The position numbers and the translations under genes are program-made. Below are positions 3,368 to 55,581 of a stretch of 64,000 nt of DNA, one piece after another (position 1 is the stretch's first letter; the number at the start of each line of letters is the position of its first letter). The stretch comes from a bacterium (GTDB lineage Bacteria > Patescibacteriota > Minisyncoccia > UBA6257 > GWB1-50-10). A model generated the notes under the pieces. The model did not search any database and was not told the origin of the DNA. It saw only the letters and a list, made by a program, of their open reading frames with translations. Location: assembly GCA_030647415.1 (NCBI GenBank), contig JAUSKB010000026.1:74894-138893 (forward strand), read 5' to 3'.

Positions 3368-3383
3368 AAGGTATTTATATAGG

Positions 3384-3410
3384 GAAAGCCCCGCCATTGG
3401 CGGGGCTTTC
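3384..3410. terminator. Rho-independent terminator hairpin (GAAAGCCCCGCCATTGGCGGGGCTTTC)
   Basis: Perfect GC-rich stem downstream of ftsH, between convergent genes. Confidence 0.6.
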
Positions 3411-3417
3411 CCTATCC

Positions 3418-3491
3418 TGGTCGGCCCGGCAGGAATCGGACCTACGTTCAATGTGTATAAGACATTTGCTCTACCATTGAGCTACGGGCCG
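3418..3491 (-). tRNA. tRNA-Ile (anticodon UAU), hand-folded
   Basis: Revcomp CGGCCCG TA GCTC AATGGTA GAGC A AATGT CTTATAC ACATT ... CGGGCCG A CCA: 7-bp acceptor, canonical D arm, 5-bp anticodon stem, loop CU-UAU-AC, CCA encoded. T-arm slightly atypical. Confidence 0.55.
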
Positions 3492-4144
3492 AATTTTTCC
3501 CGAACAGCTTTTAATCCCTGAAGTATCTTCTCAGCAACTCTAGCATTGCTTATTTTAATAGTACAGGTTCCATGGCCAAACGTGCCACGATTTATTGATT
3601 GTGAAGAATTTTTTTTGATATAGGGCTTCGTGAACTGCTCTCTCGGCAATTTAAGCGCGTGAGACCAATATGCTATCTCTGATTCTATATTCATATCACT
3701 GTAAAGATGCAGGTGTACGCGTATTTTTTCTTTCTCCAAATTAAGACAATGTGTTGTCCAATAGATAAAAAACTTCGGCACTGCAGGGTCGGTATTTGCA
3801 ACTTCCAGTTCCGAAACCCTCGTTTTTGAACCTTCTCCCCAGTAAAGGAAGAGTCCGGCTATGTACAAGTCTCTTTTCGAAAACGGGAAGATTTCATCTT
3901 TTTGAGACTCGTAAACTACTTGTAGCCGTAGTTCTTTTTTTCTAAACATCGTCTCACGGTATCGCTCAATACGAACTTCATTCCAATCGCGAAGAGCCCT
4001 GACCCGCTCCTTTGAGAGCGGGAGGCCACAAAGCCAGTAACTTAAGGTGCTTTTACTTACCCCTAGTTCTTTCTTGATCTGGCTATAGCTTTTTCCCTCT
4101 TTTCGCAAAGCTAATGCTCTCTGTTTGTCTTTTACTCGAGTCAT
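3482..4144 (-). CDS. HTH-domain protein with a degenerate LAGLIDADG-like motif (possible free-standing homing-endonuclease-like gene) in an AT-rich islet between two tRNAs
   Basis: 220 aa; N-terminal HTH (RKEGKSYSQIKKELGVSKSTLSYWL); motif DLYIAGLFLYWGEGSK resembles LAGLIDADG; local GC is clearly lower than surrounding genes. Confidence 0.35.
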   Translation of the reverse strand: MTRVKDKQRALALRKEGKSYSQIKKELGVSKSTLSYWLCGLPLSKERVRALRDWNEVRIERYRETMFRKKELRLQVVYESQKDEIFPFSKRDLYIAGLFLYWGEGSKTRVSELEVANTDPAVPKFFIYWTTHCLNLEKEKIRVHLHLYSDMNIESEIAYWSHALKLPREQFTKPYIKKNSSQSINRGTFGHGTCTIKISNARVAEKILQGLKAVREKFGP

Positions 4145-4228
4145 GAACAGTGTTTATATCATACGTTATTCACAGGTTCATTTTATCACATTTGCATAAT
4201 AAAAAGCTGTGTATAGAGTAATGCAATA

Positions 4229-4302
4229 GGGCGCTTAGCTCAGCTGGTTAGAGCGACTCGTTTACACCGAGTAGGTCGGGGGTTCGAATCCCTCAGCGCC
4301 CA
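4229..4302 (+). tRNA. tRNA-Val (anticodon UAC)
   Basis: GGGCGCT TA GCTC AGCTGGTTA GAGC G ACTCG TTTACAC CGAGT ... GGTTCGAATCC ... AGCGCCC A; a terminator-like hairpin follows at 4306-4329. Confidence 0.85.
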
Positions 4303-4469
4303 CAAGAAGCCCCGCCGTAGTGGGGCTTCGCGGTTGGGTGCTGGAGCGAGGCGATTGCTCGCCTCGCGTTCGGGATTCGAACGCCGGAGCTTGTCCCGAG
4401 GAGCACCAAGGGACGCGAGGCGGTGGCCAGCCCGAGGAGCGCGACGGCGCGACGAGAGGAGAGGCAGAA

Positions 4470-8590: not shown

Positions 8591-9205
8591 GTGTCAAAAT
8601 TCCAAATTCTGCGACCCGTGATCGTGGTAGTGGTCGCAATATGCTCATACCAAATCCTGGATTCGGTATGGGGCAACGACGACGCTTCTCTGTTTGGCGC
8701 AATGTTTTTCTGTGTTCTCGCGGTCGCCTTCTTATTCCCCTTCGGGGGAAATGTGGCACTGTATGACCTCCTCATGAAAAAGCAGCGGGCGATCAAAAGG
8801 ATCGCTACGCTCATTGTAAATGAGTGCGCGTACGGTCCGGGCGGCGTCAAAATAGATCCTGAATTATTCGAAATGTCCTTGAGGGAAAAGTCGAAACGCG
8901 AGGAGATGCAGGCGCTTCTCGATTCTCTCGTCGCCGAAAAAGCGCGGGAGGCGGCGGATGCGTTCATTGAGCAGAAGGGCGCCCAAACCGCACTGCAAAA
9001 TATGCGCCGCGACCTGAAAAACAGAATCGGATGGGGCTCGAAGACTCGGAATCAAATCGACACAGAGCTCGAAGTTGTCCAGAGAGCAGATGAAAAAGCG
9101 ACGGTAGCGAAAGTATGGTTTAATCGACGCCGAGATGTCGTTCGCGACGCGGGATTCGAGGTGTGGGACGATTTTGAGTGTTATCTAGCACTTAAAATCA
9201 ACTGA
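8591..9205 (+). CDS. hypothetical membrane protein (low-GC islet); GTG start
   Basis: 204 aa; SD AAAGGAG 6 nt upstream; N-terminal hydrophobic segments. Confidence 0.5.
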   Translation: MSKFQILRPVIVVVVAICSYQILDSVWGNDDASLFGAMFFCVLAVAFLFPFGGNVALYDLLMKKQRAIKRIATLIVNECAYGPGGVKIDPELFEMSLREKSKREEMQALLDSLVAEKAREAADAFIEQKGAQTALQNMRRDLKNRIGWGSKTRNQIDTELEVVQRADEKATVAKVWFNRRRDVVRDAGFEVWDDFECYLALKIN

Positions 9206-9249
9206 CAGAGTTAATCCGAGCCCCTGCGTGAACCGCGGGGGCTTCGACT

Positions 9250-9633
9250 TTATTCTTTATCTTTTTCCTGTCTACCAGTATCTTTATCAAATTTCATTGT
9301 CTCTTCTCTGCTTGATATCCCAGTGACCCTTCGTAAGACATCCAAAAGGTTGAGAATTTCGATATATGTTTCTTGGAGTTTTTCATCAGTTCTTTTAAAT
9401 TGTTCATCGTATTGCGCCCTCTTATCTACCCACTGGTCGAGTGCGGGGAGCTCTCGCATATCCACCTTTCCTTCTCCAGCAAGATTGTTGTACCCTGCTG
9501 GCACTCTCTGCAAGCGTCCAATTTGGTCAACCACGCTGGTCAAGCTGTCGATACTCTCGCGCATTTTTTGAATACCAGCTTCAAGTCCGCCCTCTTTTGC
9601 CGATTTCGGTTGTTCGGTGTTTGGGATTTCCAT
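9250..9633 (-). CDS. hypothetical protein (low-GC islet)
   Basis: 127-aa charged ORF convergent with the 8591 gene. Confidence 0.45.
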   Translation of the reverse strand: MEIPNTEQPKSAKEGGLEAGIQKMRESIDSLTSVVDQIGRLQRVPAGYNNLAGEGKVDMRELPALDQWVDKRAQYDEQFKRTDEKLQETYIEILNLLDVLRRVTGISSREETMKFDKDTGRQEKDKE

Positions 9634-9756
9634 ATTTTTTATTTTACACTATAAGCAGAAAAACACCAACAGAGAGAAGGTTTATTATCCGAGCCACTGC
9701 ACACAGCGCAGGAGCTTAGACTTTAATACGTGGTAATATGTAATCGGTAATAGGAA

Positions 9757-10926
9757 ATGAAAGACCAGGAAATCAAAAAACTCATCGCGCGTGAGGAAGA
9801 GCGCCAGAGGAAGGTGGTCAATTTGATTGCATCGGAAAACTACGTTTCGGACGACGTGCTCGCCGCACTCGGCTCCGTCCTCACCAACAAGTATGCCGAG
9901 GGGTACCCCGGCCGCCGCTACTACGGCGGGAACGAAATCATGGACGAGGTCGAGGAGGTCGCGAGAAAGCGGGCACTAAAGCTCTTCAAGCTCTCGCCGA
10001 AGCGGTGGGCAGTGAACGTCCAGCCGCTCTCCGGCTCCCCCGCAAACCTCGCGGTTTATCTCGCGCTTGTCCCCCCCGGTGGGAAGATCATGGGACTCTC
10101 GCTCGCAATGGGTGGCCACCTCACGCACGGTTCACCTGTTTCTGCGACCGGAAAGCTTTGGACGTGGGTACACTACGGCGTGGACCAGAAAACGGAGCGG
10201 TTGAATTACAACGCCATACTGAAACTGGCGAAAAAGGAAAGGCCAAATCTCGTCGTCTGCGGCTTCACCGCCTACTCCCGAACCATTGATTTCAAGAAAT
10301 TCCGGAAAATCGCCGACGCGGCAGGCGCGTATCTCATGGTGGATATGTCACATATCGCGGGGCTCGTCGCGGCAGGCGCGTATCCTTCTCCATTTCCACA
10401 CGCCGACGTCGTGACCACCACGACGCACAAAACACTGCGTGGTCCGCGGGCGGCAATCGTATTCTCAAACAAACAAATACCAATCACTGAGGTGATTGAT
10501 AAGGCTGTCTTCCCCGGCCTCCAAGGCGGGCCACACATGAATACGATTGCGGCCGTGGCCGTCGCGCTCGCGGAGGCGGCGACGCCAGCATTCAAACGGT
10601 ACGCGAGGCAGGTCGTGCGGAACGCGGCGGCGCTCGCTGGCGCACTTGCCCGCCTTGGTTGGCGGGTCGTCTCCGGCGGCACCGACACGCACCTCTTCCT
10701 CGTAGACACGATGGCGGGCGGCATCTCAGGCAAGCTCGCGAGCGAGAAACTCGAGCGGGCGGGCATTATCGTGAACAAAAACACGATCCCCTTCGACACA
10801 CGAAAGCCGACCGACCCTTCCGGCATTCGTCTCGGTACCGCCGCGGTCACGACGCGCGGTATGAAGGAGGCGGATATGCGCCGCCTCGCCCGTCGCATCA
10901 ACCGAGCGCTCTGCGACAAGCGGTAA
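9757..10926 (+). CDS. glyA: serine hydroxymethyltransferase
   Basis: 389 aa; LIASENY, PLP-lysine region TTTTHKTLRGPR. Confidence 0.92.
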   Translation: MKDQEIKKLIAREEERQRKVVNLIASENYVSDDVLAALGSVLTNKYAEGYPGRRYYGGNEIMDEVEEVARKRALKLFKLSPKRWAVNVQPLSGSPANLAVYLALVPPGGKIMGLSLAMGGHLTHGSPVSATGKLWTWVHYGVDQKTERLNYNAILKLAKKERPNLVVCGFTAYSRTIDFKKFRKIADAAGAYLMVDMSHIAGLVAAGAYPSPFPHADVVTTTTHKTLRGPRAAIVFSNKQIPITEVIDKAVFPGLQGGPHMNTIAAVAVALAEAATPAFKRYARQVVRNAAALAGALARLGWRVVSGGTDTHLFLVDTMAGGISGKLASEKLERAGIIVNKNTIPFDTRKPTDPSGIRLGTAAVTTRGMKEADMRRLARRINRALCDKR

Positions 10927-11027: not shown

Positions 11028-11912
11028 ATGGTCATCAACGGAAAGCGAATGGCCCAGGACGTCATAGGGCATCTGAAGGCGCTCCCGCGGCCAGACCGGT
11101 TCCTCGTCGCCATCGTCGCGCGAACGGACGAAGCGACCCAGAGCTTCATTCGCCAGAAGGAGCGCACGGCACACGAGCTCGGCATTAATTTCCGCGTCTA
11201 TCAATGCTCCGGGAGCGTCACCACCGACGAGGTCGCAGGTACCGTCCTCGCGTATGTGGCGGACCCGGCCTGCGGCGGCATCGTAATCCAGCTCCCGCTC
11301 CCGCCACAGGTGAGCCTGGCCGCCGTGCTCGCCGAACTCCCCGTCGAAAAGGATGTGGATGCTATCGGCGAGCAAGCCATACGAGCTCTGGCGGCCGGGA
11401 CGGCGCAAGTGCTCCCGCCTGCCGTCGGAACGGTCCGGCACATTATCCTCTCCATCCTCGGCATACCCCAGGAAGCCATGCCTGGCGAGGAGGATGGTGC
11501 GGTGACCGCATGGCTCTCGTCGCGCCGCGTCGCCATCCTCGGCCGCGGTATCCTCGTCGGCCAGCCCGTCGCCCGCTGGCTCGAGGGGAAGGTGCCGAAT
11601 CTGACGACAATCGACGTCGGCGACGACCACTCCCCCGTACGCGATGCGGACCTGGTGGTCTCCGGCATGGGCCAGGCGGGCGGGCTGAAACCGAATGACT
11701 TGCGGCCAGGCACGACAGTCATCGACTTCGGATACTCGAAGGTAACAGGTAATGAGCAAGAGGTGATAGGAAAGAAAATTTCAGGGGACCTGGATACATC
11801 CGAACTTCAAACTTCAAACTTACAGCGTATAAACTTCACACCGACCCCCGGCGGAACTGGCCCCATCCTCGTCGCGCAACTTTTCGAGAATTTCTACGAG
11901 CTGAACCAGTAG
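11028..11912 (+). CDS. folD: bifunctional methylenetetrahydrofolate dehydrogenase/cyclohydrolase FolD
   Basis: Starts MVINGKRMAQDV...; Rossmann GRGILVG; the ORF-track start at 10974 lies inside the terminator, so ATG 11028 was chosen. Adjacent to glyA (one-carbon pair). Confidence 0.8.
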   Translation: MVINGKRMAQDVIGHLKALPRPDRFLVAIVARTDEATQSFIRQKERTAHELGINFRVYQCSGSVTTDEVAGTVLAYVADPACGGIVIQLPLPPQVSLAAVLAELPVEKDVDAIGEQAIRALAAGTAQVLPPAVGTVRHIILSILGIPQEAMPGEEDGAVTAWLSSRRVAILGRGILVGQPVARWLEGKVPNLTTIDVGDDHSPVRDADLVVSGMGQAGGLKPNDLRPGTTVIDFGYSKVTGNEQEVIGKKISGDLDTSELQTSNLQRINFTPTPGGTGPILVAQLFENFYELNQ

Positions 11913-11985
11913 GCTCAAATGAATCACGACAAATATACGATTACTGACGGCCGTGGCTAATCGTATATTCGCCACGCAGAAGCAG

Positions 11986-12028
11986 TGAATGTTACCCTAG
12001 ATTATAACCTAGGGTAACTTATGCATTC
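11986..12028. promoter_or_regulatory. palindromic operator-like site TGAATG-GTTACCCTAG-ATTATAA-CCTAGGGTAAC-TTATGCATTCA
   Basis: 10-bp perfect inverted repeat with extended outer arms, about 25 bp upstream of a consensus -35. Confidence 0.45.
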
Positions 12029-12038
12029 AGAATCTATC

Positions 12039-12067
12039 TTGACATATCTGTTGTAATAGTGTATGAT
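12039..12067 (+). promoter_or_regulatory. consensus sigma70-type promoter TTGACA-N17-TATGAT
   Basis: TTGACA 12039-12044, TATGAT 12062-12067; about 240-nt leader before the ATG at 12308. Confidence 0.55.
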
Positions 12068-12307
12068 GTAGACACAGTTCATTCCTAAATTCTGACCTCA
12101 AATGCAACTGGAGGTGGACACCTGGATATTGAGAGCTGGATATGCGTTTGAAGGGCGGTCAGTAGGGAGGAATGAGAAAAGGATAGGAACACTCTCATCT
12201 TTTTCCCGTTTCTTCACAATTCAATAACGAAGGAACTGGTGAGATGCCGTTTGGATTCACTAAGAATCGAATTGCATTTCAAAGTCGAATTTTCGAGAGA
12301 GGTTGTC

Positions 12308-12595
12308 ATGAGTACAAAAAAGTTTTTTGCGGTGATTTCCCCATTTTTATTTTTTGTCGCTGCCGGGATGTCAGCGATGATTCTCTCCGCCGGCGAAAAT
12401 GCGAGGTTGATCGGCGGACCCCACTGGGAAATGGGTGGAGTCGCCCTCTTCGGAATTGTGCTGGGCGCATACGGCATGAGGAGGATGTCCGAAAAGGGTG
12501 GTGATGACGGAATCCCGATGGCCGCGCTCGTGGTCATGATCATGCTGTGCCTGATCGTCGGGATGGTCTCCACGGCCGCCCCGCTCTTCGTGTAG
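12308..12595 (+). CDS. small hypothetical membrane protein
   Basis: 95 aa from the internal ATG with GAGAGG upstream; three hydrophobic segments. Confidence 0.45.
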   Translation: MSTKKFFAVISPFLFFVAAGMSAMILSAGENARLIGGPHWEMGGVALFGIVLGAYGMRRMSEKGGDDGIPMAALVVMIMLCLIVGMVSTAAPLFV

Positions 12596-19711: not shown

Positions 19712-20407
19712 ATGCACCACGGGACCCACACGGACATTCTCATCGTCTCCGACATCCACCTCGGCTCCCCGGTGTGCCGCTCCAAGGCGCTCTTACGGTT
19801 CCTGAAAACGGTGAAGTTCCGGACGCTCATCCTGAACGGCGACATCTTCGACGATTTGAACTTCAACCGGCTCTCGCACGACGACTGGGAGCTTCTCGCC
19901 CACCTCCGCGAGCTCTCGAAACTGAACCACCACACCGCGGTCATTTGGATTGCGGGGAACCACGACGGTGCGGCGGCGACCCTCTCGCGCCTCATCGGCG
20001 TGCCGGTCGTAAATGAGTACGTCTTCTACTGGAACGGCACAAAGTGCCTTGCCATCCACGGCCACCAGTTCGACCGCTTCCTCTCCAAAAATATTGTCAT
20101 CTCGACTATCGCGGGCGCTATCTACCTCGCGATCCAGCGCATCGACGGCCAGGAACAGCATGTCGCGCGTCTCGTGAAACGCTTCTCGAAGTCTTGGCTC
20201 CGCGTCTCCGCGAAGGTGATGAAGGGCGCCGTTCGGTACAACCTCGTTTTCAAGCGTGCCGCCTACGTCTTCTGTGGCCACACGCACAAGGAGCATGAGG
20301 AGGTTGTGCACGGCGTCGAGTACCTAAACAGCGGCTGCTGGACGGACATCCCCTCCGCCTACATCACGCTCGACGAGCAGGGTGCGAGGGTGCATACGAT
20401 TGGGTAA
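19712..20407 (+). CDS. metallophosphoesterase (calcineurin-like; LpxH-like family)
   Basis: 231 aa; SDIHLG, GDIFD, GNHD, GHTH motifs. Confidence 0.8.
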   Translation: MHHGTHTDILIVSDIHLGSPVCRSKALLRFLKTVKFRTLILNGDIFDDLNFNRLSHDDWELLAHLRELSKLNHHTAVIWIAGNHDGAAATLSRLIGVPVVNEYVFYWNGTKCLAIHGHQFDRFLSKNIVISTIAGAIYLAIQRIDGQEQHVARLVKRFSKSWLRVSAKVMKGAVRYNLVFKRAAYVFCGHTHKEHEEVVHGVEYLNSGCWTDIPSAYITLDEQGARVHTIG

Positions 20408-20420
20408 GAAAAAGATTCAC

Positions 20421-20523
20421 CCTGTTAGAAGTTTACAGACACTCATTGAGTGTGTAGTGTAGCGTGTTATCTAAAACAACATGTGTAACATGAACACAGC
20501 GTGCGCGTAAACTTCTAACAGGG
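20421..20523. repeat. Family A palindromic element, copy A4, with conserved outer flanks TAAGAAAAAGATTCACCCTG... and ...CAGGGTGAAAGAAAAAGGAGGG
   Basis: The same outer flanks occur at copy A6. Confidence 0.85.
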
Positions 20524-20613
20524 TGAAAGAAAAAGGAGGGGAGGAGGGTTTAAAAAATGAGATATAAATGATGGAGATACTAGAAACCAGCATATATGCT
20601 GGTGTTTTTTACT

Positions 20614-20644
20614 ATTGACATTTATGTATAATTGGTGTTAACAT
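20614..20644 (+). promoter_or_regulatory. conserved promoter-like sequence ATTGACATTTATGTATAATTGGTGTTAACAT (second copy)
   Basis: Preceded by hairpin ACCAGCATATATGCTGGT plus T-run; heads the second low-GC islet. Confidence 0.5.
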
Positions 20645-20693
20645 ATAACCAGCGTTTTAGAATAAATCGTTCAAAAAACTAAAGGAGGCTGTA

Positions 20694-21008
20694 ATGAATT
20701 CATTCGGGATAGTCGAGAGGGTTGAGTACCTCACGCGTCTAGCTGACACTGACGATGGTGAACAACGGGTACTCACGGTTATTGAAGGTAAACACCTCGG
20801 CGGCAAACAAATCATCGTGTGGGCAGAGTGGGCCCACGGACCATTCCCTAGCTTTGGAAATTTCACGGTCCATAGCAAATCCCTCGACCCTGCAATCTAT
20901 GCAAAGGTCCAGGTGACGGACGCCGCAGAGGGAAAGTTTGAGGGGAAGTCTCTCTTTGGATCACCAGAGGCATATAAGAGATTTAGAGAAACCATTTGGT
21001 CCGAGTAG
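20694..21008 (+). CDS. hypothetical protein (low-GC islet)
   Basis: 104 aa; SD AAAGGAGG upstream. Confidence 0.45.
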   Translation: MNSFGIVERVEYLTRLADTDDGEQRVLTVIEGKHLGGKQIIVWAEWAHGPFPSFGNFTVHSKSLDPAIYAKVQVTDAAEGKFEGKSLFGSPEAYKRFRETIWSE

Positions 21009-21183
21009 TTCAGGCCAAAAGTACTCCCCCACACAATTTTGTGTCCGGGGGATTTTTCTTTCTCACGTCAGCTATCACCATGCCGCGCCGATTCTTTTTA
21101 CGAAGCGGAAAACTATGGAGGTCGAACCCTAATACCCAGATGGGAGGTTTTAGGGGTTAGGGGAAGCTCACAAAACAGGGAAT

Positions 21184-21427
21184 TATCGATTTATCGGGTT
21201 TATCGGGTTAACCGGGAAAACCTGATAAATCAAATAAACACGATAAACCCGATAATGCGATGAAACCTACATAGTCATTTTTTGACCGTTCCGGACCCCC
21301 GAAATCTGTTTCAAAGTGTTTTGTGTAAAACATTTTTGGTGGGAGTATACTGGTGTAAAACATTTCTAAAACAAGCCGATAGGTAGACCGTTATTGATAT
21401 ATTTAGGTGTAAAACACTGTAAAACAT
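21184..21427. other. origin-like noncoding region: TTATC/GATAA (DnaA-box-like) cluster with 15-bp inverted repeat TTATCGGGTTTATCG / CGATAAACCCGATAA, plus four GTGTAAAACA direct repeats (iterons)
   Basis: Repeats read directly at 21193-21207, 21241-21255, 21333-21342, 21353-21362, 21408-21417 and 21419-21427; AT-rich; lies between convergent genes. Confidence 0.4.
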
Positions 21428-21498
21428 CAATTTGTTTACCGTTAAACACTTTGACCCAAATTTTAAGGGCGACCACGTGGTCGCCCTCGAACTACTGC

Positions 21499-22503
21499 CT
21501 ATGCTGCCCTCGCTCCGGCAACAAGCTGGAGCTTCCCGTACCCCTGCTTTCGTCCATGCCGATTTCCAGAACCTCCTCCATTACTGGAGAGTTTCTTGAT
21601 TATAAGGTTCCAAATTTCGTCAGGGACGCTACCCCGTCGATACTTGTTTCCCACAAAATGCGAGAATGACCCCGTGACCTCCTCAACCGAGAACACTTTC
21701 TCCGAGAAGGCAATGCGGATGAAGTTCGACTCAAACGCGTTTCTCCCGGCGAAGAACGATATCGTTCCCGGCTTGTTCTCCTTCACCATCCGGAAGGTCA
21801 ATGTTGACTCCCTGACCTTTCGGGTCCGAAGCCCGTCGACCTTCCCGAGCAACGCCTTGTATCCTCTGTGGGCATCAAGAAAGAGGGTTACTAGATCCTT
21901 GATACTCTCCTTCTCTGGAAACAACGGTTCGTACGACACGTTCCGCGTTCCGGGGACGACCACTCCAAAAATCTTATTCGACGGTTTAAGATTTTCCCGG
22001 ATGGTCGCTTCCTCCAATGCGACCTCGTACATTCTTCGGATATTCGCGAGCTCGAGTTCGATTGCCTGCGGGGGTAGCCGCAGGGCACTTGAACATCGTT
22101 CATTAATCGACTTCAAGAACTTTCGAAGCCCGCCGAACGCGCCGATCCCAAGCAGTTCATTGCGCTCGAACTGTACATCGCCGACCACCTCTCCCGTGAG
22201 CGTGAACTCTTGGAAGGTGTCGGAGACATAGCTAGCTAGTTCCCAAATCCGTCGATTTATTCGATCCCGGACCTGATAGATTTTGTCTTCGCACTCGCAA
22301 CGCGTGAGAGATGCGTCGCTCTTCAGTGCGAGAATCTGGCAATTTAGTTCCTGCGCGGATGCAAAGAACCCTCGCATCATACGTAGGTACTTCTTGAATG
22401 CCGCCACAGCCGCGACATTCTCGGGATTCAGGAGATACTCCTGAATGATTTCGGCGTCCTCGTGCGCGAGGCGCTCGATCATTTCTTTTTTTGTTTTTTG
22501 CAC
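21499..22503 (-). CDS. hypothetical protein (low-GC islet)
   Basis: 334-aa ORF with no recognisable motif. Confidence 0.45.
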   Translation of the reverse strand: MQKTKKEMIERLAHEDAEIIQEYLLNPENVAAVAAFKKYLRMMRGFFASAQELNCQILALKSDASLTRCECEDKIYQVRDRINRRIWELASYVSDTFQEFTLTGEVVGDVQFERNELLGIGAFGGLRKFLKSINERCSSALRLPPQAIELELANIRRMYEVALEEATIRENLKPSNKIFGVVVPGTRNVSYEPLFPEKESIKDLVTLFLDAHRGYKALLGKVDGLRTRKVRESTLTFRMVKENKPGTISFFAGRNAFESNFIRIAFSEKVFSVEEVTGSFSHFVGNKYRRGSVPDEIWNLIIKKLSSNGGGSGNRHGRKQGYGKLQLVAGARAA

Positions 22504-24490: not shown

Positions 24491-24934
24491 ATGCTATTCC
24501 GCACCACATGGAGAGCCTACCTGCGACGCATTCGAGCATCGAGCGACGCCACAAAGCGGCGATGGATTGCCGTCGTGGGATTGGGCTCGGGAGGACTCGT
24601 CATCGCCCTCTGGGTCATCTACCTCTCCTCCACGCTGCCCGCCCGACTGGACAGTCGTTCGGGCGGGCCCACCCGGACGAATACGCCTCCGCTCGCGACC
24701 ACAACGGCGTCTGAATCGCCCCAGGAGCGAAGGGGGGATGTGTTTACGAACGGCGTCCGAGGCATCCGGGATATGATGGCAAAACAATGGCAGGGCGCAC
24801 GAAACACTATCGACAGTTCCTGGCAATCGCTGGGGGCGCTTATCACCGAGGGAAACGAATTCTCGGTGACGGGAACCACCACGCCCGCTTTGCCGGAATC
24901 GAGTGAGTCGAGCGAGCCACCGCACACACCATGA
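24491..24934 (+). CDS. hypothetical membrane protein
   Basis: 147 aa with one TM helix; overlaps the gyrA start by 4 nt. Confidence 0.4.
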
Positions 24935-27876
24935 CCACTGCAGAACCAAAGAAAACGCCCGGCGGCTCCATCGAGCCCCGCGAGATTGTGGACGAGCTCC
25001 GGCAGTCCTACCTATCGTACGCCATGTCGGTTATCGTCTCGCGCGCCATCCCGGACGTCCGTGACGGCTTGAAACCGGTGCAACGGCGCATCCTCTGGGC
25101 GATGTGGGACACCGGACTCACCCACAGCGCGAAGTTCAAAAAGTCCGCGAATGTGGTCGGCGAGGTGCTCGGCAAGTACCACCCGCACGGCGACGTTGCG
25201 GTCTACGACACCATGGCGCGTATGGCGCAGGACTTCTCGCTCCGCGCACCGCTCGTCGACGGCCAGGGAAATTGGGGGTGTTTTACTAAAGATACAAAAG
25301 TAAAACTCGCCGACGGTCGAAACGCGAGCTTTAGTGAACTCGTAGAAGAACACCGCCAGGGCAAGAAAAACTATACCTTTGCCGTTAATTCGGCTGGGCT
25401 CATTTCCATCGCGGAAATAAAAAATCCGCGCCTCACAAAAAAGAATGCAGAGCTCGTCAGGGTGATTTTGGACAATGGCGAGAAGATTCGTTGCACGCCG
25501 AATCACCGCTTTATGTTAAAAGACGGCTCCTACAAAGAGGCACACTACCTCACAAACGGGAATAGTCTTATGCCCCTATACGAGAAGTTGTCCACAAAAG
25601 AGGGCCGATTAAACAGCGACCCACGCCCGGTTTTATATGAACTAAATAAAAACCATAAAGTTGTTAGGGTTGAAAAGTTAGCGGAGCAGGAGGATGTTTA
25701 TGATTTAACGATTGATAAATATCATAATTTTGCGCTCGCGGCTGGTGTCTTTGTGCACAATTCGATCGACGGCGACAGCCCGGCGGCAATGCGTTATACT
25801 GAGGCTAGGCTTACAAAAGTCGCCGAGGAGCTCTTGACGGACATCGAGAAGGAGACGGTCGACTGGGGACCAAACTACGACAACTCCCGCGTGGAGCCGC
25901 TCGTCCTGCCGGGGAAGCTCCCGAACCTCATTGTGAACGGCGCGGTCGGCATCGCGGTCGGTATGGCAACCTCCATCCCGCCGCACAACCTCGGCGAGGT
26001 TATAGACGCCATCGCGTACCTTGCCGAGCACGGGGATGCCACGATTGAGGAGCTTATGCAGTTCATCCCGGGTCCCGACTTCCCGACGGGCGGCGTAATC
26101 TACGACACGCGGGCGATCGCCGAAGCCTACCGGACCGGCCGCGGCGCCATCGTCATGCGCGCCGTCGCCGTCATCGAGGAGCGGACGGCGCGAGGGCACC
26201 AGATCGTCGTCACCGAAATTCCCTACCAGGTGAACAAGTCGGACCTCGTCACCTCCATCGCCGAGCTCGTCACGGAGAAGCGAGTGGAGGGCATCCGGGA
26301 CCTCCGCGACGAATCCGATCGCGATGGCCTGCGAATCGTCATCGAGCTGAAAAGCGACGCGGCGCCGCAAAAGATTTTAAATCAGCTCTACAAGTACACC
26401 GAGCTCCAGAAGAGTTTCCACTCAAACCTCCTCGCATTGACCGGCGGACTCCAGCCGGAGGTGCTCTCCCTGAAGGATATCCTCGCCGCATACCTCGACC
26501 ACCGGAAGCTGGTCGTGAAGCGGCGAACAGAGTTTGACCTCCGAAAGGCGACGGAGCGGGCACATATCCTCGAGGGGCTCGTGAAAGCCTTGGACCACAT
26601 CGACCGGATCATCGAGACCATCAAGAAGTCCAAGGACCGCGAGGATGCCCAGCGGAACCTCATCGCGAAGTTCAAGTTCTCGGAGCTCCAGGCGAACGCC
26701 ATCCTCGAAATGAAGCTCGCCGCGCTCGCGGCGCTCGAACGCAAAAAGCTCGAAGATGAACTTACGGAAAAGCGGAATATCATCGAGGAGCTCACTGCGC
26801 TCCTCAAGAACCCGAAGAAGATGCTGGGGCTCATCGTCACGGAGCTCGGCAATCTCAAGGCCGCCTTCCCGAGCGAGCGGCGCACGAAGGTGGTTCCGCA
26901 CGGGCTCACGGAGTTCCGCGAGGAGGACCTGGTGCCGCAGGAGGAGGCAATCGTCACGCTCTCGGTGGACGGCTACATCAAACGGATGCCGCCCGATACC
27001 TTCCGGGCGCAACGGCGCGGCGGGAAGGGGCTCATCGGGTTCGATTTGAAGGACGAGGACCATATCCGACAGCTCATGGCGGCACGAACCCACGATAACT
27101 GCCTCTTTTTCACGGACCGGGGGAAGGTTTTCCAGACCAAGGTGTTCGAGATACCCGCCGCGGAGCGGGCGGCTAAAGGCAAACTCGTGCACAACTTCCT
27201 CGAAGTCCCACCGAACGAGCATATCACGGCGATGGTCGCCTACGGCGGATCGTCGAGCGGGTACCTCACCATGGTGACGCAGGGCGGAACCATCAAGAAA
27301 ACGCCGCTCAAGGACTTTGTGAGCGTCCGGCGGACGGGCATTATCGCCCTCAGGCTCCAGCCGAACGACATTCTTGAGTGGGCCCAGCTCTCCTCCGGCG
27401 GCGACGAGATGCTCCTCGTGACCTCCGCCGGTCAGGCGATCCGGTTCCGTGAAAAGGATGTCCGTCCAATGAGCCGCACCGCGGGCGGCACGCGCGCAAT
27501 CCGCCTGAAGCGAAAGGACCAGGTCGCCGGCGTCGGCATCATACCCAAGGAGGCCGGCGCCGCCGACCGGAAGGGGCTCCGCGTGGTCGCCGTCATGGCC
27601 CGCGGGTTCGCGAAGCAGACGCCGCTCTCGGATTACAAGGTACAGCACCGCGGCGGCGGCGGCATCAAGACCGCGAAGGTGACGGAGAAAACAGGGCCGG
27701 TGATCGCCGCGGCGATCGTCGGACCGGAGACGGAGGTTGTGCTCGCCTTCTCGAAAAAAGGCCAGGCATTGAAAACACCGCTCTCGAACGTCCGCATCGC
27801 GGGTCGCGCGACACAGGGCGTCCGCATTATGAACGTCGAGGCGGATGATGCGCTGATTGGGGTACTCTGTCTGTAG
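24931..27876 (+). CDS. gyrA: DNA gyrase subunit A, containing a mini-intein
   Basis: 981 aa; conserved GyrA blocks ([15 protein letters not shown]-terminal beta-pinwheel repeats); 161-aa insertion between GNWG and SIDGD. Confidence 0.95.
25279..25761 (+). mobile_element. mini-intein (161 aa, no homing-endonuclease domain) within gyrA
   Basis: Begins Cys ([13 protein letters not shown], block A), TPNH block B, ends VFVHN followed by Ser+1; DNA is markedly AT-rich relative to the flanking gyrA sequence. Confidence 0.8.
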
Positions 27877-29333: not shown

Positions 29334-29861
29334 ATGTTATACTTACCATTGATGAAATCCTATTTTGCGGTCTCTCTGCTTTTAGTTGGACTGGCTATTG
29401 CCATACCCGTATTCGCCGGCGTCCAAACTGCTAACGCACAAGGGAGCTGCGGCGGCGTGGGGCAACGTTGCTGCCAACCTGCCGAAGCACCCCACCAGTG
29501 CATTACCGCTCTCGTTTGCAGTAACTTCACAAGCCCCATCTGCGAGACCGGAATATGCGCGTGCAGGGGAGTCGCGCCGCCCCCACCAAACCCGAGCACC
29601 ATCACACTCATAAACCCCCTAAGCGGCACGTCCGACGTGCGCGGTCTCATCGAGCGGTTTGTCACCATCCTCCGCGATTTTGCGACGCCCATTGCGGTCC
29701 TCATGATTCTCTTTGGGGCGTTCCGAATCCTCACTGCCGCTGGGGACCCCGCGAAGTTCGAGACGGGGAAAAAGATACTCCTGTACACCGCCATAGGGTA
29801 TGCTATAATCTTTGTCGGGTGGGGAATCACCTCGATTATCGAGAGTCTGCTCTCTTCGTGA
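29334..29861 (+). CDS. VirB2/TrbC-like pilin-type protein with an N-terminal 8-Cys domain
   Basis: Signal peptide, Cys-rich domain, then two hydrophobic helices separated by AAGDPAKFETGKK. Confidence 0.45.
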   Translation: MLYLPLMKSYFAVSLLLVGLAIAIPVFAGVQTANAQGSCGGVGQRCCQPAEAPHQCITALVCSNFTSPICETGICACRGVAPPPPNPSTITLINPLSGTSDVRGLIERFVTILRDFATPIAVLMILFGAFRILTAAGDPAKFETGKKILLYTAIGYAIIFVGWGITSIIESLLSS

Positions 29862-29916
29862 TGATTCCTTATCACACTGTAAAGGTCGGTTTTCCTTCAC
29901 GGTTCAATCCTATCAC

Positions 29917-30279
29917 ATGAAACTATCAACATTCGGAAAGTTTGCTGCCGGTATTGTCTTGGCATCCGCTATCGCGACTCCGTTTGCGGTGCTCGCGCAG
30001 CCGGATCCGACACTCACCGACTTCTCGCTCTCTGGTATTTCAGGCATTTCGAAGCTCGGTGGCAAGATTGGGGGCTGGATGCTCGGCATCCTCCTGGTCC
30101 TCGCGGTCATCTTCATCCTCGCCGCGGCGTTCCTCTACCTGACCTCCGGCGGCGACGAGGCAAAGGTGGGAAAGGCGAAGAGCTACATTATCTACGCCAT
30201 CGTCGCGGTCGTCGTGGGCATCCTCGCGAAAACCATCATCACACTCGTCCAGAGTCTTGTTAACACCGCCGGAACCTAA
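29917..30279 (+). CDS. VirB2/TrbC-like pilin-type protein (paralog 2)
   Basis: Signal peptide; helix-SGGDEAKVGKAK-helix architecture. Confidence 0.45.
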   Translation: MKLSTFGKFAAGIVLASAIATPFAVLAQPDPTLTDFSLSGISGISKLGGKIGGWMLGILLVLAVIFILAAAFLYLTSGGDEAKVGKAKSYIIYAIVAVVVGILAKTIITLVQSLVNTAGT

Positions 30280-37018: not shown

Positions 37019-37735
37019 GTTTGCGCGCCACACGAACTTTTGAAATCGCAGTTTCCACGGCACGATAAGTCCCTCATAAATAATGCGGTTTGAGAGCTTA
37101 GACACACCGTGTGTCCGCCCGGCAAATGTGATGGGAATTTCTGTAATGCGTGCGCCAAGAATATGTGCGCCAATTTTCATTTCCATAAGAAATGCGAATC
37201 CGGTGGATGAGATGGCGTCAAAATCGTACCGCCGCAATAGTTCACCGCGGAAACAGTGGAAGCCGGTGGTCATGTCTCGTACCGGAACCCTAATCACGGT
37301 ACGCGCATACCTGTTTCCCCAACGGCTGAGCATCCGGCGCCAAAAATTCCATGCCACGACACTGCCCCCCACCACATACCGCGAACCAATCACAATATCG
37401 TGTGATTCAAGCGCACGGAGCATGACTGCTATCGTCTTCGGGTCATGCGAAAAATCAGCATCCATCGTGACCACTGCCCACACATCGTTTGTGCGTAAGA
37501 CATCGCGCATTGCTTCAATGTAGGCGCTCCCCAAACCAAACTTTCCGGAGCGCACACGGAGCGCAAGGCGTGGATAGGAGCGCATGAGTTCACGCACGGC
37601 AGATGCCGTACCATCAGGCGAGTTATCATCAATAACGAGTATATAAATTGATGGGTAGAGATTGAAGAGAATAGGTACGAGGCGCACAATGTTTTCTCGT
37701 TCGTTGTAGGTCGGAATAATAATAACGTCTCTCAT
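36995..37735 (-). CDS. polyprenol/dolichol-phosphate mannosyltransferase (GT2, Dpm1-like)
   Basis: 246 aa; IIIPTYNERENI and VIDDNSPDGT motifs. Confidence 0.85.
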   Translation of the reverse strand: MRDVIIIPTYNERENIVRLVPILFNLYPSIYILVIDDNSPDGTASAVRELMRSYPRLALRVRSGKFGLGSAYIEAMRDVLRTNDVWAVVTMDADFSHDPKTIAVMLRALESHDIVIGSRYVVGGSVVAWNFWRRMLSRWGNRYARTVIRVPVRDMTTGFHCFRGELLRRYDFDAISSTGFAFLMEMKIGAHILGARITEIPITFAGRTHGVSKLSNRIIYEGLIVPWKLRFQKFVWRANLRKRRRS

Positions 37736-37820
37736 AAAAATAATTGTCGGTGTTTCAATCTTTCTTTTTTTCTGATGTACGTGTGTGTCCTACGTCATTT
37801 AATCTCAAGTCCTACTGCTG

Positions 37821-37994
37821 CTACCGCGCATGGAACATCTCATGCACCTCGCGGAGCTCCTTGTTCGTCAGGTGTGTATACACCTGTATGGTCGTGAGGA
37901 ATCGTCCGCAGTTCTCCCGCGTCATCGCCGAGCGGTTTTTCTCGATCTCTAGGTAGTCGAGGTGTTCCCTTACGAGCCGTTCCGTCTCGGTCAT
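37821..37994 (-). pseudogene. tyrosine recombinase (XerC/XerD-type integrase) remnant, 57 aa, internally deleted
   Basis: Hand translation gives MTETERLVREHLDYLEIEKNRSAMTRENCGRFLTTIQVYTHLTNKELREVHEMFHAR: N-terminal core-binding-like start fused to the C-terminal catalytic-Tyr motif TTIQVYTHL; shorter than 60 aa, so absent from the ORF track. Confidence 0.4.
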
Positions 37995-38006
37995 ACCACT
38001 ACTTTA

Positions 38007-38107
38007 CCCTGTAAGAGTTTTACATACACGCTTTCATTTTGAACATCTATTGCCCTGTAATACGAATGGAACACAGTGAATGGCGTGCTGGTAAAACCCT
38101 AACAAGG
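38007..38107. repeat. Family A palindromic element, degenerate copy A8
   Basis: CCCTGTAAGAGTTTTACATACAC ... GGTAAAACCCTAACAAGG; the left end lies 12 nt from the integrase-remnant start. Confidence 0.7.
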
Positions 38108-38197
38108 TGAGCTACAGTATTGCGCAACACGTCGTTTTCCAGTTTCTGAGCTATTTTTGACATTTTTGGGGTTCCTTGGTACCATGAAAACAATCGT

Positions 38198-38464
38198 ATG
38201 CTCTCAAAACGAAAGAAGCAGAATACTATCAAGGAATATGCTCGCCACGCGACCGACACCGGCTCCGCGGAGGTTCAGATCGCGCTCCTCACAAAGCAGA
38301 TTGCGGCGCTCGCAAACCACCTGAAAACACACCCGAAGGACCACCACTCCCGCCGCGGACTCCTCATGATGGTGGGGAACCGTCGGAAGTTCCTTCGGTA
38401 CCTCCAGACCGAGAACGAGACCCGGTATAAAAAACTGGTGAAGAAATTTGAGATTGAGGCCTAA
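38198..38464 (+). CDS. rpsO: 30S ribosomal protein S15
   Basis: 88 aa with the canonical S15 sequence; followed by pnp. Confidence 0.92.
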   Translation: MLSKRKKQNTIKEYARHATDTGSAEVQIALLTKQIAALANHLKTHPKDHHSRRGLLMMVGNRRKFLRYLQTENETRYKKLVKKFEIEA

Positions 38465-44906: not shown

Positions 44907-45623
44907 TTACTTTTTACCTTTTACTACCGCAATCGGCTTCGCGCCGGGGAGCATCAACAACCCGGAACCTTCCATGAGAATCTCCTGGTAGCGCGGATTG
45001 AATTGCCGAATCGTCTCGGGGTCGATGCCGTACCGCGCGGCGATAGTTGTGAGTGAATCGCCAGCTATGACCGCGTAGCGCACGCCGGAAACCGGCAGTA
45101 TGGTAAGTTCAGCGCCGGGACGGATCGTGCGCCCCACGGACAGGTTCGCCCACCGGATCGTCTCCGGCGTTATGCCGAACCGGGCGGCGAGCGCGGCGAG
45201 CGTGTCACCTCGCTGTACACGGTACCGGATGGTCCCGTCCGCTACGGGAATGGTTACGGTAAACGGCATCGCGGCTGCAGTAAGGTCGCTCTCCGTCACC
45301 GTCCCCAGGTCGGGGACAGCGCCTGCCTGTCCGGCCCGCCCAGATGACTCGGTCGGACGGGTAGGCAGCGCTGACAATCCCACCGCACCCGCCCGGATGA
45401 CTCGGTCGGACGGGTCATCGAACGGATTTATCTCGCCTGTCTGCGCAGGCGGGTTTGGAAGTGTTGTTATATCTGAAAATACACCCTCCCCGTCCGACCG
45501 AGTCATCCGGGCGGGCACGCCGTCGTTTTTGGACTCATCCACATAGCTGCTCACAATCTTGTCTGCGGAGACCCCAGAAGCGCCAATAAGGCCTGTAATT
45601 CCCAGGAGAATGAGCGACCACAT
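44907..45623 (-). CDS. LysM-domain protein (two LysM repeats); linker region carries three copies of the 28-bp dispersed repeat
   Basis: YRVQRGDTLAALAARFGI and YAVIAGDSLTTIAARYGI; N-terminal TM anchor. Confidence 0.8.
   Translation of the reverse strand: MWSLILLGITGLIGASGVSADKIVSSYVDESKNDGVPARMTRSDGEGVFSDITTLPNPPAQTGEINPFDDPSDRVIRAGAVGLSALPTRPTESSGRAGQAGAVPDLGTVTESDLTAAAMPFTVTIPVADGTIRYRVQRGDTLAALAARFGITPETIRWANLSVGRTIRPGAELTILPVSGVRYAVIAGDSLTTIAARYGIDPETIRQFNPRYQEILMEGSGLLMLPGAKPIAVVKGKK
45336..45363. repeat. 28-bp dispersed repeat GCCCGCCC(A/G)GATGACTCGGTCGGACGGG, copy 1 (inside the LysM gene)
   Basis: Further copies at 45389-45416 (same orientation), 45490-45518 (inverted), 47774-47801 and 54641-54672 (variant). 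Confidence 0.85.
45389..45416. repeat. 28-bp dispersed repeat, copy 2 (inside the LysM gene)
   Basis: Exact core match. Confidence 0.85.
45490..45518. repeat. 28-bp dispersed repeat, copy 3, inverted (inside the LysM gene)
   Basis: CCCCGTCCGACCGAGTCATCCGGGCGGGC. Confidence 0.85.
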
Positions 45624-45770
45624 GACCGCCGATCGGAGAAAACCATTCCCGAATGGCTTAAGGTTACGTAGAATCGTACTGATAAACTAATGGTATCATG
45701 AAAAAGGATAGAAGAGAAGAAAAGAGCAAGGAGAGAAGAAAAATGACAAAGGCGCAATTTGAATAGTGTG

Positions 45771-45895
45771 TACACAAATGTCTAACAGGGTACACCCTGT
45801 TAGAGTTTTGCACATACTCCGTTATATTCCATATGGATGTTTCAGAAAGACCAATTTCTTCTAGTAAAAAGATGATCTGCAAAACTCTAACAGGG
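45771..45895. repeat. Family A palindromic element, copy A11, plus an extra solo right-half immediately upstream
   Basis: CACAAATGTCTAACAGGGT-ACACCCTGTTAGAGTTTTGCACA ... TGCAAAACTCTAACAGGGTAA-ATG (ksgA start). Confidence 0.8.
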
Positions 45896-45898
45896 TAA

Positions 45899-46708
45899 AT
45901 GCGAGCACGAATCGGACAGCATTTTCTGAAAGACGCGAGTGTTGCTCGGCGTATTGTCTGCGCGCTCCCCATCGCCGAGCACGCGACAGTTATTGAGGTC
46001 GGGCCGGGGAAGGGCGCGCTTACCGCATTCCTCGCGGAGCGCGTGGGGGAGGTTCCCGAGGCGGAGCTCGTCTGTATTGAACGAGACCCTGCCCTTGCGG
46101 CGGCGCTTGCCGCTCAATCCCAATCGTGGCGAGGTGTGCTGCCCACCGTACACACCGGCGACGTGCGCACACTCCTCCGCGAGGTCGTCCGGAGCGTTCC
46201 CCGGACGCGGCGGTACGCCATCATCGGGAATCTGCCGTACTACCTCACGGGGCACCTCTTCCGAATCCTCGGCGAGCTGCCGCGCCTGCCTGAGGCGGCG
46301 GTCTTCATGGTGCAGCGGGAGGTCGCGGAGCGGCTTGCCGCCGTGCCGCCGTGCATGAACATGCTTGCGGCGAGCGTGCAGGCGTGGGCGAAACCCTCCA
46401 TCCTATTCCGTGTGCCACCATCCGCATTCTCGCCGAAACCGAGCGTGGAAAGCGCGGTGGTGTCGCTTGTCGCGGTAAGAACCACCCCGCCACCTGCAGA
46501 ATACTATCGGGCCGCCCGGACACTCTTTCGGCAACCACGGAAAACAATTTTGAATAACCTTGCGGCTGAAATCGGGCGCACGGACGCCGTGCGCATCCTC
46601 ACCGAAGCGGGGCTCAACCCATCGGACCGTCCGCAGACACTTTCACCGGACAAGATTCTTTTGCTATCAAAACACCCGCCGTTCACCGAAGCGGCGGGTG
46701 ATGTTTGA
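45899..46708 (+). CDS. rsmA: 16S rRNA (adenine1518/1519-N6)-dimethyltransferase RsmA/KsgA
   Basis: GQHFL and VIEVGPGKGALT motifs. Confidence 0.85.
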   Translation: MRARIGQHFLKDASVARRIVCALPIAEHATVIEVGPGKGALTAFLAERVGEVPEAELVCIERDPALAAALAAQSQSWRGVLPTVHTGDVRTLLREVVRSVPRTRRYAIIGNLPYYLTGHLFRILGELPRLPEAAVFMVQREVAERLAAVPPCMNMLAASVQAWAKPSILFRVPPSAFSPKPSVESAVVSLVAVRTTPPPAEYYRAARTLFRQPRKTILNNLAAEIGRTDAVRILTEAGLNPSDRPQTLSPDKILLLSKHPPFTEAAGDV

Positions 46709-51564: not shown

Positions 51565-51570
51565 ACGCCA

Positions 51571-53883: not shown

Positions 53884-53967
53884 TCTAATCTCAACAAGCA
53901 GAGGCAAGCTGAGGCCGAGCGGCAGCGGAAAGCCGGTGGAGCAACACCAAATCCATAACCCATTTAT

Positions 53968-54067
53968 CCTGTTAGAAGTTTACAGATAGTTATTTATATG
54001 GAAAATATTATTGTTATGCAAAATAAAATTGTGAAGTGGCGGTGTTTGCGCGTAAACTTCTAACAGG
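53968..54067. repeat. Family A palindromic element, copy A12; the right end is followed directly by the ATG at 54068
   Basis: CCTGTTAGAAGTTTACAGATAG ... TTGCGCGTAAACTTCTAACAGG-ATGAACCTC. Confidence 0.85.
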
Positions 54068-55072: not shown

Positions 55073-55125
55073 ATCCGAAACTCTAAATCCTAAACAAGCA
55101 CGAAATTCTAAACTCTAAACCACTG
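55066..55125. repeat. Family C repeat (CTCTAAATCCGAAAC(C/T)CTAAATCCTAAACAA...), forward arm C1
   Basis: Inverted partner at 55516-55580; together they bracket the four-helix-bundle gene. Confidence 0.8.
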
Positions 55126-55129
55126 CATT

Positions 55130-55495
55130 ATGGAACCGAGCGTGGGCTTGAAACGGTATGATTTGGAGGCGCGAACGCTTCAATTTACAAGGGATGTCAT
55201 TTCGTTCGTTTCCGCCCTTCCCCGGAGTATTGCCAATATTGAAATCATCAAACAGCTCATCCGGGCGACTGGTTCGGTGGGAGCGAATTATATAGAAGCG
55301 AATGAGTCCGTAAGCAGAAAGGACTTTCTCTTACGAGTTAAGATTTCCAAAAAAGAGTCGCGAGAGGCAATATACTGGTTGGAGCTCGTACAATGCTCAA
55401 ATGAGCAATGTGAAGTTAGGAGGCGTGAATTGATCCGAGAAGCGACCGAGCTCATGAAAATTCTCGGTTCAATCGTCGAAAAATCATCTCGGTGA
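55130..55495 (+). CDS. four-helix-bundle protein (TIGR02436 / 23S rRNA intervening-sequence protein; Avd-like)
   Basis: 121 aa; RATGSVGANYIEANESVSRKDFLLRVKISKKESREAIYWLEL matches the family core; lower GC than neighbours. Confidence 0.7.
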   Translation: MEPSVGLKRYDLEARTLQFTRDVISFVSALPRSIANIEIIKQLIRATGSVGANYIEANESVSRKDFLLRVKISKKESREAIYWLELVQCSNEQCEVRRRELIREATELMKILGSIVEKSSR

Positions 55496-55515
55496 TATTG
55501 CATTCATGATTTTTC

Positions 55516-55580: not shown

Positions 55581-55581
55581 T

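Follow-up and report, generated by a model that had tools for sequence, protein, structure and literature searches.

The 64 000-nucleotide stretch analysed here (the window) is positions 74 894–138 893 of contig JAUSKB010000026.1, GenBank assembly GCA_030647415.1, from a bacterium of the Patescibacteriota. It carries on its forward strand an uninterrupted open reading frame (ORF) of 981 codons (24931–27876) which is gyrA, the gene for DNA gyrase subunit A (GyrA), with an insert. The ORF matches Pfam family PF00521 (E = 3.6e-157) and six copies of the GyrA C-terminal repeat (PF03989), scores 1037 bits against TIGR01063 (cut-off 877) and is the only gyrA-like sequence within the window. The insert is in frame, 483 nt or 161 codons long, and occupies 25279–25761. 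It begins with TGT (Cys) directly 3' of GGA AAT TGG GGG (G-N-W-G; protein context GQGNWG) and ends with CAC AAT (His-Asn, 25756–25761), after which the gyrase sequence resumes with TCG ATC GAC GGC GAC (S-I-D-G-D). A first-pass annotation, made from the letters alone, had described these boundaries and called the insert a GyrA mini-intein with recognizable blocks A and B (the latter RCTPNHRF); all of these elements are present as described when the ORF is read directly. With the insert removed in silico, the spliced GyrA can be aligned to solved GyrA structures with no gap at the junction. By the offset to full-length E. coli GyrA (chain 6rks_A), the junction, G116/S117 of the spliced protein, corresponds to E. 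coli GyrA G110/S111 (here and below, a slash marks a junction). The catalytic tyrosine (equivalent to E. coli Tyr122) lies 12 residues downstream of it. The parts of the gene are as follows, each with its evidence in brackets.

24931–25278, + strand: gyrA N-extein, 116 codons (ORF, PF00521, TIGR01063).
25279–25761, + strand: putative class 1 mini-intein, 161 aa, from Cys1 to His160-Asn161 (PF14890, TIGR01445/TIGR01443, AlphaFold2/Foldseek, same-site relatives).
25279–25317, + strand: block A, residues 1–13, with the Cys1 codon TGT at 25279–25281 as the predicted first nucleophile (read directly; C1 in 50 of 50 inteins at this site).
25489–25512, + strand: block B, RCTPNHRF, residues 71–78, with the T73-x-x-H76 motif (read directly; C72, T73 and H76 in 50 of 50).
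25591–25635, + strand: disordered linker, residues 105–119, the apparent scar of a lost central domain (predicted local distance difference test, pLDDT, <50; alignment to 391-aa relatives).
About 25615–25623, + strand: putative deletion junction, around residues 113–115 (gap position relative to 391-aa relatives).
25690–25761, + strand: blocks F and G, with Asp142, His149, penultimate His160 and terminal Asn161 (read directly; TIGR01443 match, residues 139–161).
25762–25764, + strand: Ser+1 codon TCG, the first C-extein residue and presumed second nucleophile, equivalent to E. coli GyrA S111 (6rks_A offset).
25762–27876, + strand: gyrA C-extein, 704 codons plus stop (PF00521, six PF03989 repeats, gapless alignment to solved GyrA).
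25795–25797, + strand: catalytic tyrosine codon TAT; the site used by the Mxe-type intein is immediately 3' and unoccupied (6rks_A offset; MRYTEARL uninterrupted).
25786–25818, + strand: synonymous C-extein patch rich in A/T at third codon positions (AT3-rich), a possible co-conversion tract (codon third positions).

The Hint domain suspected by the first-pass annotation was borne out by profile searches, in which the insert exceeded the cut-offs of Pfam PF14890 Intein_splicing (E = 6.5e-23; 81.7 bits, cut-off 35.8), of TIGR01445 for the N-terminal splicing region (E = 2.3e-13; 50.9 bits, cut-off 24.5) and of TIGR01443 for the C-terminal splicing region (E = 2.5e-6; 27.6 bits, cut-off 15.6; residues 139–161). 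An AlphaFold2 model of the insert, built with 19 homologues (pLDDT 89.1, predicted template modelling score 0.82), predicts a HINT fold, and its sole low-confidence stretch is residues 105–119. The best matches of this model in the PDB by Foldseek were all inteins (NpuDnaE, SspDnaE, NrdJ-1, DnaB and RecA), with E-values down to 5e-10 and TM-scores of 0.7–0.84 for the top ones. The best PDB match by sequence was the NrdJ-1 intein 8ubs (E = 1.4e-7), whose 'irctpdh' aligns to block B. NrdJ-1 and the gp41-1-type intein 6qaz, which represent metagenomic mini and split inteins, resemble the window insert in their HINT fold, and NrdJ-1 also in the block B pattern RCTP[ND]H; both differ from it in being only about 25% identical, in residing in other host proteins and in being naturally split, whereas the window insert is contiguous.

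All residues of a class 1 (canonical) intein can be read directly: C1, T73-P-N-H76, H160-N161 and Ser+1. We compared them with 50 inteins at the same GyrA site, namely those of 49 genome loci described below plus the window copy. C1, C72, T73, H76, H160 and N161 are present in 50 of 50, D142 in 49 and H149 in 48, and Ser+1 is found at all 49 related GyrA junctions. No match to a LAGLIDADG or HNH domain was found in the insert with Pfam, as the first-pass annotation had claimed. Taken together, these features identify the insert, as far as its residues tell, as a real class 1 mini-intein devoid of an endonuclease, and their conservation suggests that it is probably splicing-competent. Two other classifications were tried and rejected. 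Class 3 inteins have no Cys1/Ser1 nucleophile and carry a WCT triplet consisting of a block B Trp, a block F Cys and a block G Thr. Cys1, His-Asn together with Ser+1 and the conserved host site speak against a class 3 intein and against a bacterial intein-like domain; moreover, block F has Asp142 at its position 4, and Val159 precedes His-Asn. A bifunctional full-length intein with a homing endonuclease is ruled out by the size of 161 aa, by the lack of an endonuclease match in Pfam and by a gap of about 230 residues relative to longer relatives. An HMM (hidden Markov model) scan of all six frames revealed no second intein within the window.

By analogy with characterised class 1 inteins, the insert would be translated within a 981-aa GyrA precursor, in which Cys1 would attack the carbonyl of Gly(-1) in an N-S acyl shift aided by Thr73 and His76 of block B. 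The Ser+1 hydroxyl would then take over the N-extein by transesterification, cyclisation of Asn161, aided by His160 and by Asp142 and His149 of block F, would free the intein, and an O-N shift would restore a peptide bond to give an 820-aa GyrA. Because the site lies inside the DNA-cleavage core of this essential subunit, 12 residues before the catalytic tyrosine, the precursor is very probably inactive and gyrase function would require splicing.

The opposite view is that the insert is a degenerate remnant which no longer splices, so that the gene is either non-functional or tolerates the insert as an extra domain. Loss of the endonuclease domain is indeed one step of the usual cycle of intein decay. 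However, every catalytic residue is intact and matches the family consensus, the model is a compact and confident HINT fold, the ORF is uninterrupted, and the cleavage core would hardly tolerate a 161-aa insertion at a distance of 12 residues from the catalytic Tyr. Furthermore, an engineered mini-intein derived from a GyrB intein at the GyrB site of the same family, the endonuclease-deleted Ssp GyrB intein, splices efficiently (PMC3620165). We regard a dead remnant as very unlikely.

The first-pass annotation had stressed that the insertion point is not that of the well-known mycobacterial GyrA intein, which it put 11 residues further downstream; the actual distance is 12. In a table derived from InBase (July 2009), all 11 GyrA inteins (Mfl, Mga, Mgi, Mgo, Mkas, Mle, Mma, two Msp, Mvan and Mxe) are inserted at MRY/TEAR (PMC3359363, supplement 2). 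The window reads MRYTEARL uninterrupted, and the classical site is therefore empty. The Mxe-type allele (GyrA-a; NF038098, GyrA_w_intein) is ruled out, the score being 834 bits where 1850 would be required. The Mxe GyrA intein (1am2) was not among the PDB sequence matches of the insert at E ≤ 10 and was only the 45th-ranked fold match with Foldseek. The two share the host protein, class 1 and the segment around the catalytic tyrosine, as do the mycobacterial GyrA inteins generally, and the Mxe GyrA intein is also a natural mini-intein. They differ in the site, which for Mxe is 12 residues downstream, and in the +1 nucleophile, which is Thr for Mxe and Ser in the window, and no sequence similarity is detectable between them beyond the generic intein level. 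They are different, distantly related intein lineages.

Both inteins can occupy a single gyrA. This is the case at five loci (L001, L025, L028, L031 and L033) from genomes of the Candidate Phyla Radiation (CPR) and of DPANN archaea, and in the metagenomic fragment P0044. The extein between the paired inteins is 12 residues long and reads S[IVL]DGDxxAA[MY]RY. At L001 (4001–5860) the downstream intein, at the RY/TE site, matches 1am2 (E = 7e-25), and its middle part is LAGLIDADG-like. Since the two inteins coexist in one gyrA, the G/S and RY/TE positions are independent homing sites.

A four-sequence intein alignment served as query against GTDB genomes, each species being represented by one genome. 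At least 569 relatives were detected and the best 80 loci were examined. Forty-nine of these 80 are gyrA genes in which a related intein sits precisely at GQGN[FW]G/S[IVLM]D[GDN]D, and their splicing domains are 55–78% identical to that of the window intein; the closest (L004, L007 and L002) reach 72–78%. The shared junction together with a splicing-domain identity of at least 45% places the window intein in the family of the GyrA G110/S111 site. Same-site inteins such as those of Parcubacteria GW2011_GWA2_47_8b (L007), Ca. Liptonbacteria (L001), Patescibacteria H51-bin094_1 (L004) and the protein match P0003 have the identical site and catalytic residues, and several are likewise minis (139–223 aa). 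Their hosts are mostly low-GC, whereas GC at third codon positions (GC3) of the window host gene is 0.84, and the genes are annotated plainly as gyrase subunit A. The remaining loci among the best 80 are mostly gyrB genes with the intein at EGDSAGG/SAKQGR, and a few are RadA (GHA/STYR) or have a reductase-like site (NASNP/CSEY).

A metagenomic protein search with the insert (5.8 billion proteins) produced 61 matches: GyrA fragments reading GQGN[FWMV]G/C account for about 33, and 4 more contain the C-terminal junction VHN/S[IL]D[GD]D; the two named ones are Ca. Giovannonibacteria GW2011_GWB1_47_6b (P0003) and Ca. Buchananbacteria. An exhaustive HMMER run over 1.84 billion cluster representatives detected 5039 members of the intein family when the limit was E ≤ 1e-3 and 448 when it was E ≤ 1e-30. 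The organisms that carry the intein at the G/S junction belong for the most part to the Patescibacteria/CPR and to the DPANN archaea (Woese-, Pace- and Nanoarchaeota), along with Omnitrophota and a few others. At eight loci (L013, L017, L019, L046, L056, L059, L064 and L073) gyrB and gyrA are adjacent and each contains an intein of this family. Viral contigs were scanned as well and yielded at least 237 same-family inteins, many of them full-length (loci L081–L160). Their host proteins are terminase-like (K[IV]DHPxGG/C...HN/SKDxxDA), P-loop helicase-like (SG/C.../SIGVGKST) or, in one case (L130), GyrB-like. Since none of the best 80 of these viral matches is a GyrA-site copy, no viral vector can be named.

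The status of the site follows from these results. The first-pass annotation had proposed that this may be a distinct intein allele or insertion site in GyrA, and in part this stands: site and lineage differ from those of the Mxe type, and G110/S111 is a distinct GyrA intein allele that is absent from InBase 2009, where all 11 entries are at RY/TE. It is not, however, newly occurring, as the same junction is occupied by the same family in dozens of CPR/DPANN genomes in public sequence data. Our literature search found no paper naming the G110/S111 GyrA site or inteins in CPR gyrA. GyrA inteins beyond the mycobacteria do appear in two surveys whose text assigns them no sites: Novikova et al. 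count 50 GyrA inteins in four phyla (PMC4760082), and Villain et al. refer to 23 archaeal GyrA sequences with inteins.

The family's GyrB site is the one used by the cyanobacterial Ssp GyrB and Ter GyrB inteins, for which the InBase-derived table gives AGG/SAKQ and ASG/SAKQ, respectively (PMC3359363). Like the window intein, the cyanobacterial GyrB inteins are class 1 with Cys1, HN and Ser+1; unlike it, they interrupt the Toprim region of gyrase B and not the cleavage core of gyrase A. One member of the family at the GyrB site comes from the cyanobacterium Scytonema (L066) and is 46% identical to the window intein. Ssp GyrB itself, which would align closely to the window intein, is presumably a member too.

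The small size of the window copy can be understood by comparison with its same-site relatives. In 28 of the 49 loci the intein is 390–394 aa long and includes a central domain of about 230 residues. This domain shows the motif HH...RVRHHxDFNKLNN...EHW..H (e.g. L007 3675–4400 and L051 4310–5040); apart from a weak match to HNH_3 (E = 0.03) in one relative it has no Pfam assignment, and a label of 'HNH-like' would refer to nothing other than the visible RVRHHxDFNKLNN motif. It may be a divergent or uncharacterised type of homing endonuclease. When the window intein is aligned with the 391-aa relatives, both splicing halves align and are separated by a single internal gap of 230 residues, after ...RLNS(D) and before (D), which falls in the disordered stretch of the model (residues 105–119). 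The alignment thus marks the window intein as an apparent deletion derivative of a same-site intein of about 391 aa, with deletion end points of its own. Counting the window copy, 21 of the 50 same-site inteins are minis or intermediates (139–262 aa), and the differing end points of their gaps imply many independent losses of the central domain. Lacking a homing endonuclease, the window intein would be incapable of autonomous homing. It would persist because precise loss is rare and only a precise deletion leaves gyrA functional.

Whether the intein is instead kept for the benefit of its host, as a conditional switch by which environmental cues regulate gyrase, was also considered. Its location in a functionally critical motif, the high conservation of the splicing domain across hosts and the invariant Cys72 beside the block B Thr would all suit such a role, and PMC4760082 covers proposals that tie the clustering of inteins in replication proteins to function. 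Yet any intein in an essential gene would be expected to keep its splicing residues, and the sporadic presence among close relatives together with the repeated decay of the central domain fit the life cycle of a selfish element. A regulatory switch therefore seems quite improbable to us.

The first-pass annotation had also remarked that the DNA of the insert is AT-enriched relative to its gyrA flanks and had taken this to suggest horizontal acquisition. The enrichment is confirmed: GC content is 0.439 and GC3 0.491 in the intein, compared with 0.629 and 0.837 in the gyrA exteins. The GC3 of the intein is below that of 777 out of 777 windows of 161 codons drawn from 27 other long coding stretches of the 64-kb window (mean 0.747, standard deviation 0.083), whereas GC3 in the N-extein is about 0.9 until a few codons before the junction. 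Of the 120 GyrA proteins most similar to the spliced sequence (60–100% identity), 111 are free of inteins, 5 have one at the G/S site and 4 at the classical site. The closest intein-free relatives (L161 and L162; 79% and 73% GyrA identity) have an intact GQGNWG/S[IV]DGD and are syntenic with the window, the shared order being Lactamase_B_3, a small protein, gyrA and a solute-binding protein. When 1081 pairs of loci are compared, the splicing domain exceeds the GyrA core in conservation in 91% of them, and the two correlate only weakly (Spearman 0.31). In the comparison of the window with Woesearchaeota L051, identity is 74% for the splicing domain and 54% for the GyrA core.

A further compositional anomaly is found in the C-extein. 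At 25786–25818 the codons GCA ATG CGT TAT ACT GAG GCT AGG CTT ACA AAA form a patch in which 8 of 12 codons end in A or T, as opposed to a background of 15.8%; none of the other 774 extein windows of 12 codons reaches this value. The intein-free, syntenic L161 and L162 have GC-ending codons at the positions of the patch. It is suggestive of co-conversion with a donor allele of lower GC. The patch is centred on the classical RY/TE site and could also be the footprint of an earlier event there. Given the GC3 contrast, the intein-free syntenic orthologues, the splicing domain outconserving the core and the AT3-rich patch, the intein most likely entered this high-GC lineage horizontally, after its split from the closest intein-free relatives. 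A gyrA allele of lower GC would have been the source, and homing or recombination the route. Horizontal acquisition is plausible on the grounds of composition, orthologues and identity patterns.

Several observations weigh against this account and against the splicing that it presupposes. Family inteins are in general AT-richer than their host gyrA, by a mean of 6.4 points and a maximum of 15.4 (48 loci with both values), and consequently only part of the 19-point GC gap at the window locus is informative. The patch comprises only 11 codons, lies 8 GC-ending codons away from the intein and is without an identified donor, its best nucleotide match being 82% over 33 nt. No near-identical donor intein was found either, the best identity being about 77–78%. 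The splicing activity of the insert is deduced from conservation alone. Finally, the view extends over 64 kb of the genome, and a second, intein-free gyrA or a parC may exist elsewhere.

Some of these data can be turned into a case for vertical inheritance, with an ancient intein that was precisely lost in the relatives and a low GC content that is an intrinsic bias. Such a bias is in keeping with the AT-richness of family inteins, which holds in low-GC hosts too, and the intein and extein identities do correlate positively, albeit weakly (Spearman 0.31). However, long residence at a genomic GC3 of 0.72–0.84 should have raised the GC3 of the intein, which is nevertheless below all 777 windows, and the 19-point gap is larger than at every other locus. 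With 111 of the 120 closest GyrA proteins intein-free, including the syntenic orthologues at 79% and 73%, many independent precise losses would have to be invoked. The splicing domain also outmatches the GyrA core even in the comparison with the archaeal L051. Vertical inheritance is unlikely, though we give it more room than the remnant or the switch.

An artefact of metagenome assembly, in which reads from the intein-bearing gyrA of a low-GC organism were joined into a high-GC contig, would also produce an abrupt change of composition at the boundaries of the insert. The source is indeed metagenome-assembled, and the 100% identical NCBI protein (P0212) is entitled 'MAG: DNA gyrase subunit A [bacterium]'. 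Against this, the switch in composition takes place within a few codons of the intein boundaries and in frame, and a chimera would require long identical k-mers between alleles with GC3 of 0.84 and of about 0.3–0.5. In addition, the same architecture occurs in 49 independently assembled genomes, and some of the proteins come from several sources (P0320, P0321 and P0324). An assembly chimera is scarcely credible.

Having weighed these alternatives, we consider it very likely that the explanation holds as a whole, i.e. that the insert is a class 1 mini-intein whose splicing is needed for GyrA, that it is a deletion derivative of a longer same-site intein and that it came into this lineage horizontally. 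A broader proposal goes further, and we put it forward tentatively, with less than even confidence. It holds that G110/S111 is a formally undescribed second GyrA allele ('GyrA-b') belonging to the GyrB-type family, that it is the commoner GyrA site among the sampled CPR/DPANN relatives and that it has spread between bacteria and archaea by means of the central domain that Pfam cannot classify. The window copy would then represent a rare footprint of invasion in a high-GC host, visible as unameliorated codon usage and as an AT3-rich co-conversion patch centred on the classical site.

A second insertion point for inteins in GyrA is documented here. Both points flank the catalytic tyrosine, in keeping with the idea that inteins target the most conserved functional motifs of replication proteins. 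The contrast in composition between host and intein, together with the intein-free syntenic orthologues, makes this a clean case for intein invasion and decay. A naturally minimised 161-aa Cys1/Ser+1 intein is also a possible candidate for protein engineering, its family presumably including the well-splicing engineered GyrB mini-intein. For annotation, the consequence is that an intein-bearing gyrA is labelled plain 'DNA gyrase subunit A' with a length inflated by the intein. The current understanding of inteins is unchanged by these data, and the descriptive value of the site is modest.

Other features of the window were recorded. Just downstream of gyrA and the solute-binding gene, two small ORFs (29334–29861 and 29812–30279) have predicted hydrophobic segments, the first also a Cys-rich stretch; their appearance is that of small membrane proteins, secreted or pilin-like. 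Upstream of gyrA, a region of lower GC (20161–22503; minimum about 0.40) includes a 334-aa ORF on the reverse strand (21499–22503) that has no Pfam match and lies beside an S1-domain gene. Further low-GC islands are located near 3091–4414, 8851–9994, 11611–12574, 37291–38344, 45361–46114 and 54871–55834. Three long ORFs (566, 770 and 334 aa) at 49864–55072 and 57039–58802 have no Pfam match at E ≤ 1e-5, and just downstream of them is a gene for a VirB4/TraC-like ATPase (PF19044, E = 6.5e-27); ORFs and ATPase may constitute a type IV secretion or pilus-like cluster in which some components lack annotation. ARAGORN predicts a tRNA-Ile with anticodon TAT on the reverse strand at 3418–3491. This tRNA is uncommon in bacteria, in which AUA is usually decoded by a modified CAU anticodon.

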